Assembly: GCF_006345805.1 (NCBI RefSeq)
Contig: NW_021836384.1
Location: 1-24,329 of the forward strand
From: Octopus sinensis
Taxonomy: Eukaryota
Length of the DNA stretch: 24,329 bases
Reading direction: 5' to 3'
Below are positions 6,692 to 21,084 of this stretch, piece after piece; within the stretch, counting starts at the first letter, position 1, and every line of letters starts with the position of its first letter. Both the position numbers and the translations under genes were made by a program. The notes under the pieces were generated by a model that searched no databases, had not been told where the DNA came from, and saw nothing but the letters and a program-made list of their open reading frames with translations.

Positions 6692-7073
6692 GTGGAGGCT
6701 CAATGGCCCAGTGGTTAGGAGAGCGGACTCGTGGTCGTAGGATCGCGGTTTCGATTTCCAGACCGACTGTTGTGAGTGTTTATTGTGCGAAAACACCTAA
6801 AGCTCCACGAGGTTCCGGCAGGTGGTGCTGGCGACCCCTGCTGTACTCTTTCACCACAACTTTCTCTCACTCTTTCTTCCTCTTTCTGTTGTACCTGTAT
6901 TTCAAAGGGCCAGTCTTGTCACATCCTGTCTCACGCTGAATCTCCTCGAGAACTAAATTAAGGGTATACGTGTCTGTAGATTGCTCAGCCACTTGCATGT
7001 TAATTTCACGAGCAGGCTGTTCCGTTGATCGGATCAACTGGAACCCACGTCGTCGAAACCGACGGAGTGCCAC
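6692..7073 (+). mobile_element. Full-length tRNA-derived SINE, family C
   Basis: A-box tggcccagtgg and B-box-like ggtttcgatttcc; full-length reverse-complement similarity to 8213-8589; decayed TSD atcacatgagt (6681-6691) / atcataagagt (7075-7085). Confidence 0.85.
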
Positions 7074-7203
7074 GATCATAAGAGTATTTCATAGGAATCT
7101 TATACCTGTATCATATTCACGAGTCATACATGGTGTACCTCTCCAGAACCACTCAACCACTATGAAAATTGAAATCACAACTCTTAACATTGCTACACAA
7201 CTG

Positions 7204-8199: not shown

Positions 8200-8212
8200 G
8201 ATAAATTGTATC

Positions 8213-8589
8213 GTGGCACTCCGTCGGTTGCGACGACGAGCGTTCCAGTCGATTCAATCAACGGAACAGCCTGCTTGTGAAATTAACGTGCAAGTGGCTG
8301 AGCGCTCCACAGACACGTGTACCCTTAACGTAGTTCTCGGGGAGATTCAGCGTGACACAGAGTGTGACAAGGCTGGCCCTTTGAAATACATGTACAACAG
8401 AAACTGGAAGATAGAGTGAAAGTTGTGGTGAAAGAATAGAGCAGGGTTCGCCACCACCCCTGCCGGAGATTCGTGGAACTTTGGGTGTTTTCGCTCAATA
8501 AACACTCACATTGCCCGGTCTGGGAATCAAAAGCTCGATCCTACGACCGGGAGTCCGCTGCCCTAACCACTCGGCCATAGTGGCTCCAC
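8213..8589 (-). mobile_element. Full-length tRNA-derived SINE, family C, inverted relative to 6692-7073
   Basis: Minus-strand head gtggagccactatggccgagtggttagggcagcggactc; flanked by gataaattgtat (8200-8211) / gataaattatat (8590-8601), a probable TSD. Confidence 0.85.
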
Positions 8590-10000: not shown

Positions 10001-10022
10001 AAACCTTTCTATCAAATATATA

Positions 10023-10437
10023 TTTTTCTCTTTCTCTTTTACTTGTTTCAGTCATTTGACTGCGGCCATGCTGGAGCACCGCCTTTTAGTCGAGCAAATC
10101 GACCCCGGGACGTATTCTTTGTAAGCCCAGTACTTATTCTATCGGTCTCTTTTGCCGAACCGCTAAGTGACGGGGACGTAAACACACCAGCATCGGTTGT
10201 CAAACAATGCTAGGGGGACAAACACCGACACACAAACACACACACGCATATATATATACATATACATACATATATACGACGGGCTTCTTTCAGTTTCCGT
10301 CTACCAAATCCACTCACAAGGCTTTGGTTGACCTGGGGCTTATAGTAGAAGACACTTGCCCAAAGTGCCACGCAGTGGGACTGAGCCCGGAACCATGTGG
10401 TTGGTTAGCAAGCTACTTACCACACAGCCACTCCTGC
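10023..10437 (-). mobile_element. Near full-length, well-preserved tRNA-derived SINE, family A, with internal TA/TG microsatellite
   Basis: Minus strand gcaggagtggctgtgtggtaagtagcttgctaacc (A-box), gggctcagtccc (B-box-like), tttgggcaagtgtctt (resembles the start of the CORE domain), tail aatgactgaaacaagtaaaagagaaagag. Confidence 0.9.
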
Positions 10438-11233
10438 ATATATCTATATATATTATATATATATATATATGTGTGTATGTGTGTGTTGTGTGTGTGTGTG
10501 TGTGTGTGTGCGTACATGTGTGTGTGTTTGCGTGCGTGTGTGTGTGCAAACACGCTATCTTTAAGATAGTATGTACATAGTAACATTACATTGATATCAA
10601 TTTATCATTTTCGAGAGAGTCGACGTATTAACATATCGCATGGCGAGAACTCGCCAGCTCTCGTCGTCCTCGCAGCAGAAACCGTTCTAAGTCACAGTCG
10701 TCTAGTTCTGCTCCAACGGTTTCCAATCTCTGCTGGTACCATGCCAGATTTAAGGACAAAACCCGTCGATGTATCCAGCCCTGTTCGTTCAAGTTGTCGG
10801 GAAACTAGTCGCGGGAGATTTGGGCACGTTAATTTCTTCCCAGTAATTTTTCATCGCATTGTGCATTCTTTGTTAAGGATCGGGTGTCTAGCGAATCGTT
10901 CATGGTTGACACTGGATCCAGCTGTTCTGCTTGGCTTTTGAGTCTTACTTCAGACAAGCCGAGCAATCTAGAGTGTATATGTGTAAGTATCCATAAGGTA
11001 TGCATAGAAAAAACGCTTACAAGGCATGCAATATGAAGTATAGTCGAGCGAGAATTGCGGAATACCTAAAATACAGCTATGAAATGCAATTATGTTAAAG
11101 GACGTGCATTTAAAGGGTAATGAAAAATTACTGCATAAATTGTGCCAATAAACTTTAATACACACACACTTACACACACTCTCTCTCACACACACACACA
11201 TATGTATGTATACATATATAAATATATAAAAAT

Positions 11234-12122: not shown

Positions 12123-12503
12123 GTTCTACGATAAAATATTTCAAAACAGTTGTTAACAGAACGTGCATTTAATATCTTTAAAAAATGATAAATAAATGAG
12201 GAATATTGGCTGTAAAAGGACAGTAAAGTAAACTTTGGAATGGCTTATATCACACAAGAATGGCAAATGAAGTTGTAGCGATATTCGAACATGGAATACT
12301 CGCCAAATAGCAATTCAATGAGAGATGTCTTGAATTCGCTCGTGCGCATAACCTGTAGCCAGGTCATGAATACTTTATTCGGCCGGGGACAGTATGAAAT
12401 AGTTTACTTTATATCATTGCAAATACGCTTTTGGAGGTCTGTAATAAACATGTTTTTTAAAAATAATATCAAAGATATGTGTGTGTATGTGTGTGTATCT
12501 ATA

Positions 12504-12541
12504 GGTGCGGGAGTAGCTGTAGGGTAAGTAGCTTGCTTACC
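12504..12541 (+). mobile_element. 5' head of a family A SINE, interrupted
   Basis: ggtgcgggagtagctgtagggtaagtagcttgcttacc matches the head of the 10023-10437 copy and then stops abruptly. Confidence 0.8.
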
Positions 12542-12542
12542 T

Positions 12543-13039
12543 CTTGTATTGACAGTCCAGAGTGGCCTCCGCAAGTGGCTACTCTTGTACTGGGAGGAAA
12601 GGAACTTTTCCACTTAACAGACTCCTTTTCAAGGGAGGATTACAGATTTCTCCGTGGGGGCCCCGACTTGCTGGTGCAGGATTGCTTGAAGACCGTAAGA
12701 GAGTTAAGCGGGGATTAGTATGAGAGGTTTATTGCCTCAAGTATGTGTTAAATTTGTAATGCACATTTTAGTCCAAATAAATTGTATGTGTTGAAAAATT
12801 GTAAGAGGTTTGATACCTCAATGTATATGTTTAAATATTGAAAAATGTAAGAGGTTGAATACCTCAATATATATTTGTGAAAGAACAATGTTATAGAGAA
12901 GCAGTGGGTCGGCGGGCGCTTTTTCTCTTCACCAATCCTTATCATTCTCGTATCATCATCATTCATTTCATTAATGTCTTGTCCAGCCCGCAAAGCTACC
13001 TAATCGTTGTACTGTCTTTATCACAAATACAATAAAATA
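12543..13039 (+). mobile_element. 5'-truncated retro-insertion (possibly L1/Tx1-like) bounded by a target-site duplication
   Basis: Flanked by identical aagtagcttgcttacct (12526-12542 and 13040-13056); begins in an open frame (..CIDSPEWPPQVATLVLGGKELFHLTDSFSREDYRFLRGGPDLLVQDCLKTVRELSGD*), then AT-rich UTR-like sequence ending aaatacaataaaataa. The clade is inference. Confidence 0.7.
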
Positions 13040-13056
13040 AAGTAGCTTGCTTACCT

Positions 13057-13358
13057 GGATTCCGGTTACCCAGAGTGCATTTGTTTTGTTGTTTGTGTGC
13101 GAGTCGGACGTTTTTGTTTTTTTTGCTGCTTTGAGGGCAGACATAATGTACTCAGACTTTAGCGGGTCTGAGTTGTCTTCGGCAGAGGAAGAGCTGGTAA
13201 GGGCGGTCATAAAGATGGACGGAATGTTGGAAAAGACAAGGAGTTTTGCTGAGACCACGGAGATGAAGCGAAGGGTGTTGGACTTGGCTGGTCTGAAGGA
13301 GTATGAGAAGATGGTACAGAAGGTGGGAGGCGACGTGCGGTCACAGTTTAATGAGTGA
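13057..13358 (+). mobile_element. Putative 5' end (UTR plus start of an ORF1-like frame) of a retroelement inserted at the same SINE site; 3' part deleted
   Basis: Non-SINE sequence follows the second repeat; ATG 13146 opens the charged, helix-like frame MYSDFSGSELSSAEEELVRAVIKMDGMLEKTRSFAETTEMKRRVLDLAGLKEYEKMVQKVGG, which runs into SINE tail sequence at about 13339. Confidence 0.5.
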
Positions 13359-13372
13359 AACAAGTAAAAGAT
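13339..13372 (+). mobile_element. 3' tail of a family A SINE
   Basis: ggtcacagtttaatgagtgaaacaagtaaaaga compared with ggccgcagtcaaatgactgaaacaagtaaaaga in the 10023-10437 copy. Confidence 0.7.
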
Positions 13373-13606
13373 GAAACATAAAATATAAAAGAATGCACAG
13401 ATAGATAAACAAGAAAAACCCAAAATCCCAAACTACAATGTTTGACACTGAGCCAGGGTTTTGAAGATGAGGGATCAATAAAAATGGACGGGTTTTGACT
13501 GGATTGCTCTTCTCGTTGCATAGCGGTATTTGCTTCGGTTCGTTGCATTCCGAGTTCGGACTTGTTTCAGCCTAGAGCAAGAGTACTAATATAAATATTT
13601 ATACAA

Positions 13607-18653: not shown

Positions 18654-18996
18654 AGGCATCTCAAGGCGGTTACAATACCAGTGATCGTAGGAGCACTAGG
18701 AATGATCAAGAAGGGAACCGAAAATTGTATGAGAATGATCTCTGGCTTACCATCCCTGCAAGAAGTGCAAAAGATTGTCTTAACTGGTACATCACACGTA
18801 TTGAGAAGAGCATTGTCGATGTGAGAACTATTACTACCCATGTATTTTAATTTAACTTTAAAAAATAAATAAAATAAAATAACGAACTAGTGAGTTTAAT
18901 TTAATGGCCTACCAATGTATACTATGAGTTTCTTTGCCCTAGGAGTCGGGAAGACACTCGGCAAGAAATGGAAGCAAATTTAAAAGAAGAAAAAAA
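18654..18996 (+). mobile_element. 5'-truncated R4/Dong-like element (endonuclease C-terminus plus 3' UTR)
   Basis: RHLKAVTIPVIVGALGMIKKGTENCMRMISGLPSLQEVQKIVLTGTSHVLRRALSM* (stop 18822-18824); followed by (TAA)n. Confidence 0.85.
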
Positions 18997-19111: not shown

Positions 19112-20388
19112 GTTACAGTTACAGCTACAATATACTTAACTGGACACGAAATGAACTGACCAAAATAGATAGGAAAACAAGAAGAATAATGACAGGATCT
19201 AGGATACATCACCCAATCTGACATAGAAAGACTATATACAACATATAGAAGGTGGTAGAGGCCTATACAGCTGAAAACTACTATAAATAACCACCACAGG
19301 ACTGCAAAAATATCTACTTCAAAGGAAGGGAAACTGATCCAGATAGCGACAAAACACGAGCAAAACAAAAAACTGTTCTCAGTATTTAAGGAAGCTGACA
19401 AATACAAACAAGAAATCATACCACCTAATAACATGAAGAAGAAGAAGAAGATGAAGAAACAACAAAAGCTATAAAACAAATGAAATCCAACTAAAATAGA
19501 ACAGCAACGAACCATGATAAAACGATGGCAAGAAAAGCCCTTCATGGTAAATACTGGACTAAACTAAACGCAAAAGAAATAGACAAAGAAAAATCCCAGC
19601 AATGGTTGAGAAGCTCAGGACTCAAAGCAGAAACACAGGGATTTTTAATTGCAGCAGCAAAGACCAAGCCTCCCCACCAGAATTTAAAAACCAAACATGT
19701 AATGAAAAGAAATATATACAAACCTGCAGAATATGTGGAGATGGACAAGAAACAATAAGTCATATTATCTCTAGCTGCCCAGTCCTGGCTAAGAAGGAAT
19801 ATATTCACAGACATGACAGAGTTGGAACCTACATACATTGGAAGCTATGCCAACATTATGGAATAACAACAGAAAAAAGATGGTATAGGCACACCCAGAA
19901 AAGGTCACAGAAAACGAGAAAGCCACCATACTCTGGGATATGCCGATACACACAGATAGAGAAATTAAGGCCAACAGACCAGATATAGTTGTCAGAGATC
20001 ATGAAGAAAAAAAATGCTTTCTAATTGATGTATCAATACGGGCTGATGACAACGTGTCTCTAAAAGAAATGGAGAAACTCTCAAATACAAAGACCTGGAA
20101 ATAGAGGTAACTAGAATGTGGAATCGAAAACAGAACAATTCCTATCATAGTAGGTGCATTAGGCATGATAAAAAAATATTCAGACAAATACATAACAAAA
20201 AACACCAGGACTTACAAACACATATAACATACAGAAAATTGCACTACTAGGCACTGCACACATCCTACGCAGAACACTTTCCATACAATAACCATCAGAG
20301 CATCACAACAAATCACAGCACACGCCCAAGGCACACAGAGCTGCGCTCGGTAGTGAAGTGAACGCACGCTAAAAAAATAAAACTACTG
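19112..20388 (+). mobile_element. 5'-truncated R4/Dong-like element: post-RT region, CCHC knuckle, restriction-like endonuclease, 3' UTR
   Basis: With frameshifts: YSYNILNWTRNELTKIDRKTRRIMT..HHP.SDIERLY..EGGRGL, LHGKYW..WLRSSGLKAETQGFLIAA, CRICGDGQETISHIISSC, RHDRVG, ILWDMPIHTDREIKANRPDIV..LIDVSI..KYKDLEIE, IPIIVGALG..GTAHILRRTLSIQ* (stop 20289-20291). Confidence 0.92.
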
Positions 20389-20479: not shown

Positions 20480-20560
<81 letters not shown>

Positions 20561-20564
<4 letters not shown>

Positions 20565-21084
20565 TGTCAAAGTAAAAAGACCTCGAAACTGAAGTATTCA
20601 AGATGTTGGGCAAGAAGATGAAGTTAATACCAGTAATAATTGGAGCACTGGGCATGATAAGAAAATACATTGACAAAAACGTAGAAGCTATACCTGGATC
20701 CTCAACACGACACACTATCCAAGAGATAGCCCTGCTAGGAACAGTCCACATCCTACGCAAGATTCTATCAATTCAATAATACAACCTAAACAAGACACCC
20801 AACAAACACAAGATGCACTCTATACAGCTATTATCCAGTGAAATAAACTTCTACCGGCGTCCATTCAACCAACGCATTACATACTCAATACACAATACAA
20901 GCAATAATACAACAAAGAACTGCACTCAAGAGAAAAAAAAAACTAACCCAAAACAATACCGGTAAGATTTTTCGCGCTCCCAACAACAGAAAAGAACACA
21001 CCATGCTGCACACACCCCAGCAGCACGGAGGAGCAGCAGGTGATGCAGTAGAAATTTGCCTCAAACTATCAAATGCTAAAGAAT

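Follow-up and report, generated by a model that had tools for sequence, protein, structure and literature searches.

Two ORF1-only retroelements probably landed at one base of an octopus SINE head, likely mobilised in trans by a Tx1-like LINE

Some LINEs insert at fixed positions in multicopy sequences. Among the target-specific members of the Tx1 clade, Tx1L inserts into Tx1D, Keno into U2 genes, and Tx1-Mar into Mariner-N4 (PMC4494074). The targets listed for this clade in the parts of the same source at hand are DNA transposons, LTR elements, U2, U5, 5S, satellites, and microsatellites; SINEs are not among them, and the supplements may hold more (PMC4494074). Other LINE derivatives have given up autonomy. 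HAL1 (half-L1), HeT-A, and Ag-Sponge keep ORF1 and the 3' end and are proposed to use the proteins of a partner; the origins named for such ORF1-only derivatives, in the parts of these sources at hand, are Jockey, L1, and CR1, not Tx1 (PMC5753468, PMC5786205). In R2, the RNA starts within the upstream 28S sequence, and the proposal is that it primes second-strand synthesis after annealing to the target; occasional duplications turn into inherited 5' extensions (PMC3774820). Genes for tRNA are also targeted, by Dada DNA transposons (PMC3706591) and by NeSL-1_TV and LIN15/LIN25 (PMC4640811).

The octopus system described here resembles the target-specific Tx1 LINEs; the targeting of other transposons, ORF1-only derivatives, and tRNA-gene targeting are all known already. 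It was found in a window of 24,329 nucleotides of Octopus sinensis DNA, the whole stretch that was analysed. In the preferred reading, to which a probability of about 0.85 is given, one SINE head was hit at a single base by two ORF1-only retroelements, first B and then A, which were likely trans-mobilised by a Tx1-like LINE. A literature search, with Repbase, Dfam, and subscription papers outside its scope, found no report of a LINE with a SINE head as its target, or of these octopus families, and the accessible portions of three octopus repeat papers (PMC13282606, PMC9115989, PMC8967140) make no mention of SINE-head targeting.

Positions 12503-13383 contain, in order, a SINE head, a 17-mer, 497 bp with an A-rich end, the same 17-mer, about 284 bp, and a SINE tail. 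This is the order that a first-pass annotation had claimed, and all of its parts are present in the sequence:

12503..12525, plus strand: 5' portion of the SINE head that serves as host, its A-box-like motif decayed; it can be aligned to the intact minus-strand SINE at 10021-10440 and to SINE heads from four other loci
12526..12542, plus strand: first (upstream) of the two 17-bp target-site copies that flank element A
12543..13039, plus strand: element A, a 5'-truncated ORF1-only retroelement with the last 58 codons of ORF1, a 3' UTR, and an A-rich end (repeat matches, full copies elsewhere, open frame)
13013..13025, plus strand: 3'-terminal 4-bp hairpin common to the ORF1-only and two-ORF families, one pair of which is broken here
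13040..13056, plus strand: downstream copy of the 17-mer, comprising the original target and the start of the target-like leader of B
13056..13340, plus strand: element B, the 5' end of a second ORF1-only family, with a layered leader (13056-13063), a 5' UTR, and ORF1 from the ATG at 13146 (repeat matches, full copies elsewhere)
13341..13383, plus strand: 3' tail of the host SINE, of which 13344-13383 is an 85% match to SINE positions 369-407
10021..10440, minus strand: intact copy of the same SINE with the target site empty, a comparator and not part of the insertion (alignment, 16-nt core match)

The head segment 12503-12525 stops at the base where all insertions begin. The stop codon of the element A ORF1 lies at 12716-12718, and the ATG at 13146 sits in an open frame spanning 13041-13358. 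The two plus-strand copies of the target word agree over 17 bases, and a 16-nt core of this word has three matches in the window at up to three mismatches (12526, 13040, and, with one mismatch, 10403-10418 on the minus strand), compared to a mean of 0.11 in shuffled sequence, where none of 100 shuffles reached three. As the annotation had also noted, and as is seen in the alignment, the SINE does not resume directly after the second 17-mer copy; its tail returns only at about 13341-13344. Contigs from two other organisms bridge the junctions, one from run X4 spanning the head-A joint (12512-12641, four other letters) and others from runs X4 and X8 spanning the A-B joint (12992-13174, three other letters). 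The head-A and A-B joints are therefore not assembly artefacts, and, given the three to four differences in these contigs, they predate the split of these organisms. The joint between B and the tail at 13340 is bridged by none of the 32 contig pieces listed, and many short-read contigs run upstream into SINE sequence at 13339-13344; the rest of B and most of the SINE body would have been lost in a later deletion running into the SINE tail.

The host SINE is abundant, with 56,553 exact intact heads genome-wide, and three of its subtypes serve as hosts. The target lies just behind the A-box-like motif of the head. The A-box and B-box labels are presumptive, being assigned by resemblance to the general box consensus, and no tRNA was called in the head by ARAGORN or Rfam. 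Many copies contain the word CCTTGGG, described as a conserved CORE/Ceph word (PMC5786205), and octopus OR2 has been classed as a CORE SINE (PMC4758252), as far as the available parts of these sources go. The targets of Dada, NeSL, and LIN elements resemble this one in being tRNA-type internal promoters, and some Dada duplications fall in the A box. Dada, however, is a DNA transposon, the NeSL and LIN elements use a restriction-like endonuclease, and their targets are real tRNA genes, whereas the octopus target is a SINE present tens of thousands of times (PMC3706591, PMC4640811, in the parts consulted).

Other repeats lie in the same window. Another SINE-like repeat forms two inverted copies at 6692-7076 and 8210-8589, which are 82-89% complementary and about 1.1-1.6 kb apart. 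Decayed LINE 3' parts with a C-terminal nuclease-like motif and frames like those of L071/L072 are found beside (TAA)n at 30-870, 18660-18830, 19150-20380, and 20560-20780; they are probably Dong/R4-like elements, which target (TAA)n, and the window would then hold another targeted family besides. Elsewhere in the genome, at L106 (C7:83.51 Mb), a SINE head and its remainder enclose a whole SINE copy followed by a short family-A 3' end; the enclosed SINE may have fused with the tail of the element or been carried along by it.

Both inserted pieces are dispersed repeats, piece A with at least 46 matches (40 scored of 1589 candidates) and piece B with at least 40 matches of 175 candidates (40 scored). 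An origin of the pieces from a host gene or a tandem repeat is thereby ruled out, and reading the flanks of the copies, as the annotation had proposed, led recurrently to SINE heads. Full copies of family A (L012, L078, L075) are 1780-2161 bp long, end in the A sequence, and contain an ORF related to that of B. Full copies of family B are 1.4-1.5 kb long and carry one ORF between a SINE head and the SINE remainder; L096, for example, has an unbroken 402-aa ORF in a unit of 1478 bp, with the SINE head on one side and the rest of that SINE on the other. Units of this type have the features of ORF1-only elements, namely one ORF1 homologue, no ORF2, a LINE-type 3' end, and duplications of their own. 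No ORF2 match was found in A and B units. The annotation had asked whether the two pieces belong to one element with ORF1 and APE-RT, and the copies show that they do not. The A and B ORF1 proteins are only about 18-27% identical, so A and B are two families and not parts of one element, and APE-RT resides in a third, two-ORF family. A single element comprising A and B was also ruled out by the long stretches, none of 20 of which joins B to A as one unit. The more general claim, that one SINE site was hit twice in succession, by a 5'-truncated element and by another that was 5'-intact and later cut short, is matched by the other copies.

The ORF1 protein contains a CCHC knuckle (zf-CCHC, just below the Pfam cut-off), and its structure model (pLDDT 77) gave tandem-RRM matches in Foldseek, the best at an E value of 5e-5 and with low TM. 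It is thus predicted to be an RNA-binding protein of Type I (RRM-RRM-CCHC). A Type I ORF1p with RRM and a CCHC knuckle is consistent with Tx1 in non-mammalian animals, according to the part of PMC5203782 consulted. A search with part of ORF1 returned at least 150 matches (148 scored of 16,289 candidates), and homologues are named from Octopus sinensis and O. bimaculoides. Protein-atlas clusters of an ORF1 homologue, which serve as leads only, are CCHC and ZCCHC3-like at 0.87-0.90. No Transposase_22 match was found in ORF1 at E values up to 1. HAL1 proper, which is mammalian, L1-derived, and equipped with a Type II ORF1p, is ruled out by the lack of Transposase_22, and the octopus families are HAL1-like in their working. 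They differ from HAL1 in their Type I ORF1, in comprising several old lineages, and in their sequence-specific SINE site.

The ORF1-only lineages appear to be long-lived. Between B subfamilies, dN/dS is 0.13-0.26, measured on copies picked for open frames, with L145 and L112 being the same locus; such values suggest that ORF1 is useful to lineages that lack the enzyme. The ORF1s of the two-ORF family and of B are 30-37% identical, which indicates that the ORF1-only elements are old lineages whose historic partners may differ from the family found here.

Relatives and variants of these families were seen at further loci. Younger relatives of the ORF1 family at L141-L160 (e.g., L142, L143, L152, L155) have many open frames and a different hairpin and tail; they are arranged head to tail, up to six or more units in a row, with two-ORF copies intermixed and at sites outside the host SINE. 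At L146-L147 (C7:10.44-10.46 Mb), ORF1-only units follow one another in a long chain at one site, all with C at target position 9. L273:962-9546 and L274 (C3 and C8) are three-unit stacks in which the third unit differs. A family-A copy has a (TAACCC)-like long repeat tract in its 5' UTR (L075:1779-2348), and a satellite array of about 100 bp breaks a B copy that lies outside a SINE and keeps a target-like leader (L060:1990-3195). L045 and L060 are seemingly off-SINE copies that kept the tag and lost their 3' ends, and both were excluded from the counts.

A family of two-ORF elements of 5.3-5.7 kb came to light through L110, an ORF2 fragment with its end at the same target. Their ORF2 has an APE domain (PF03372, 8e-12) and an RT domain (PF00078, 4e-29) in L197 and a zf-RVT domain (PF13966, 3e-8) in L206, and their ORF1 has zf-CCHC. 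The best solved-structure relative of ORF2 is human L1 ORF2p (E 2e-54). In an RT tree (FastTree, 38 rows, no named Tx1 or L1 sequence among them), the element groups with octopus copies and unnamed proteins. Judged by these sequence features, it would belong to the L1 clade as a Tx1-like LINE. Target-site duplications, variable 5' truncation, and a fixed 3' end are all present, and nine copies (L191-L194, L196, L197, L199, L200, L202) have the SINE head upstream and the SINE remainder or a further element downstream. None of the fetched copies was shown to have both ORFs unbroken, the longest ORF2 frames seen being 793 and 822 aa. Like the target-specific Tx1-clade elements, the family is an APE-RT LINE of the L1 group that uses one site in a multicopy sequence, shows sequential same-site insertions, and shares its target with a non-autonomous partner, as Tx1-Mar does with SINEU-3 (PMC4494074, in part). 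In octopus, by contrast, the LINE inserts into the promoter region of a SINE head, and its partners are ORF1-only families that code for protein.

Families A, B, and the two-ORF family finish with the same last bases and have in common a 3' hairpin whose stem changes are compensatory. Stem variants were TGCC/GGCA (48), CGCC/GGCG (22), TGTC/GACA (at least 9), TGCT/AGCA (1), and GGCT/AGCC (1), counted among 215 pattern-called ends that include some false calls; the off-target table of the loose end-finding pattern, which yielded false ends, was left out of the counts. The hairpin is likely the signal read by the reverse transcriptase, and the shared end and shared site suggest that the two-ORF LINE likely mobilises the ORF1-only families in trans. 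At L069:517-2484, a chimeric unit starts as a B-family ORF1 (5' half) and continues as the 3' part of an element with ORF2; a later unit contains a piece of ORF1 in inverted orientation, and template switching between partners is a possible cause. In the limpet Patella caerulea (P0014 cluster), the locus tags of ORF2 relatives lie next to one another in a run on a single contig, which would fit a tandem array formed by a related element in a mollusc other than octopus.

Full-length octopus copies begin with target-like leaders that are specific to each family and in some cases layered, much as R2 carries 28S sequence, and the octopus RNA would likewise start within the target. The two systems differ in that R2 relies on an HDV-like ribozyme, acting on an rRNA co-transcript, and on a restriction-like endonuclease, whereas the octopus elements have APE, duplications of 9-19 bp, and no Rfam ribozyme (0 matches at the gathering score across 6 loci and 44 kb, where a divergent ribozyme could escape). 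The RNA start is probably set by a promoter. A DPE-like word has 16 matches at leader positions 28-30 among 62 leader types and 7 at position 25, a count that has no control, and it is absent at positions 28-30 from the leader type of B in the window. No RNA run is listed among those that cover the window. A young stack is covered by contigs in four runs; that these runs are of RNA origin is a guess, and the contigs show no start.

Across 22 long single insertions, the upstream and downstream targets differ at 6/176 of positions 1-8 and at 20/154 of positions 9-15 (p 0.0017). The leader changes at target positions follow the element subfamily, and an extra T in the target-like word tracks one LINE subfamily through three loci with two different neighbours (L271-L273). 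These observations favour a leader taken over from the target and inherited. The leader might also be a fixed 5' end of each family that drifted towards the target, instead of being re-acquired from the duplication of the mother copy, an explanation that suits its constancy within subfamilies. Layered tags, in which a second, decayed target word stands in series with the first, make this explanation the less likely one. They occur in 12/62 leader types, including that of B in the window, compared to a mean of 5.5 in shuffles, 2/300 of which reach 12, and at least two of the 12 tags are chance-like. Layered leaders with the words of two SINE subtypes are common to independent loci (L056, L057, L084, L089; L163, L176, L178; L292-L295), which argues that target sequence was taken up at least several times.

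A pattern for the 3' end that is free of target sequence had 53 matches, and the target (at most two mismatches in 13) came next in 29 of the first 30 in contig order. This set mixes two-ORF, ORF1-only, and short copies, includes one tandem locus twice (L212 and L213), overlaps earlier loci at about ten of the 30, and was found with a pattern modelled on ends that had initially been noticed next to the target. Within the 579 kb of DNA fetched, SINE heads account for 14/108 YAAGTAG and 14/60 YAAGTAGY sites, and for 6-23% of core sites of 6-8 bases overall; against a null of 0.23, 29/30 has a p value of 7e-18. Sequence-specific insertion into a multicopy target, typical of Tx1 elements if not universal among them, is thus found here at 29/30 versus 6-23%. 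Genome-wide there are 515 exact end-plus-SINE junctions, compared to 0 in the control, which corresponds to about 0.9% of the 56,553 intact heads, and the shared end was present in all 30 exact junctions that were read. The 5' ends of B lie behind a SINE head, or behind the end of another element and the target, at 23/29 loci by script and at three more by eye. Copies with 5' truncations, 71 bp to 5.7 kb long, sit in SINE heads with their own duplications of 9-19 bp.

Family A behaves differently. On hand scoring, 11/26 scorable copies are on the SINE site (29 loci, 3 unscorable), which differs from the target-free set at p 9e-6; among the off-site copies, 10/15 start with A(A/T)GTA. For this family much is thus explained by a short motif, with p 0.02 against a null of 0.23. 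Target-like words also open several off-SINE copies that have duplications of their own (L002, L005, L008, L017, L083, L088, L221). These copies, and the 11/26 of family A, are what would be expected if only about Y|AAGTAG(Y) were read, nothing past 6-7 bases mattered, and the SINE were merely the commonest carrier of the motif. Such a short-motif preference is improbable as a general account, given 29/30 against an expectation of 6-23%, the 23/29 of B, and the distance between A and the target-free set; it suits family A only, and, provided that the 579-kb null sample is representative, it is already ruled out for the two-ORF family. The endonuclease likely reads a short core, with the two-ORF and B families more selective than A. 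The earlier proposal of an abundant SINE as the landing site accordingly holds for B and for the target-free ends, and only in part for family A. That a targeting system exists and that this is its site can be stated with high confidence.

The order of the two insertions is read from one base. The last base of the upstream copy (12526..12542) is T, which is not the SINE base and equals the first family-specific base of element B. At four other loci (L292-L295), each behind a SINE head, B opens with these 17 letters too and continues with an identical word, while the SINE has A at this position; the 17th letter therefore belongs to B. The sequence of element A itself has a different base at position 17 of the 17-mer. 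The T in the upstream copy is most simply derived from a target that already held B, so B likely inserted first and A second. The 17-mer, once held to be external to the element, is indeed a target duplication, and it is also partly internal to B, as the four other loci show.

A single event might also have produced this arrangement, with A and B co-copied from the read-through RNA of an older stack and 5'-truncated inside A. Stacks are common, and the first two units of L273 match those of L274 (98.9% and 98.2%) although the flanks are unrelated, which is what co-copied dimers would show. A single event would, however, have copied the A of the SINE, unless a chance base was added, whereas the upstream copy ends in the T of B. 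No second locus was found with the exact A-B junction, the B leader stands behind a SINE head in its four other copies, and the first units of L271/L272 are not each other's closest relatives. A single event thus has little probability, comparable to that of the short-motif preference. Least credible of all is hitch-hiking, in which one SINE with its cargo, or a composite SINE subfamily, was amplified as a unit with no targeting: SINE head and tail are both retained here and L041 also joins a cut B to a SINE tail, but there are at least three families, many subfamilies, three SINE subtypes, off-SINE copies with duplications, and an insertion that splits the internal promoter boxes, and it is ruled out because truncated copies (71 bp to 5.7 kb) have independent truncation points and their own duplications.

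Two successive targeted insertions, B and then A, may be accounted for by a mechanism that draws on the observed site, families, shared 3' hairpin and end, 9-19 bp duplications, and stacking. An APE endonuclease would nick the bottom strand at the pyrimidine-purine step opposite Y|AAGTAG, and ORF2p would bind the shared 3' hairpin and reverse transcribe from the nick. The full-length RNA would start inside the upstream target copy, so that the end of the cDNA could anneal to the top-strand overhang of the new target and prime the second strand, a step that seems fairly probable. Annealing in register would give a clean junction, and annealing out of register a new tag inherited by the daughters. 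Each insertion would leave two target copies, and chains would grow. By parting the A and B boxes, an insertion likely silences that SINE copy, probably at little cost to the host.

More tentatively, these elements may form a LINE guild on the internal promoter of the commonest octopus SINE, consisting of one enzyme lineage and several long-lived ORF1-only lineages with one landing base, whose RNA starts in its own landing site, and so passes on target information that is updated with the SINE subtypes. If this reading, somewhat less likely than not, is true, targeting by APE-type LINEs would be part protein and part heritable RNA tag, and it would be redirectable by changing about ten bases.

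The SINE promoter joins the known landing sites of sequence-specific LINEs, and ORF1-only partners under purifying selection share it. With more than 500 exact junctions, and empty sites in the tens of thousands, this one genome offers a natural data set for the LINE 5' junction and second-strand priming, in an APE-type element rather than in R2. Insertion between the promoter boxes would make the LINE a brake on SINE activity, and thus a measurable conflict between mobile elements.
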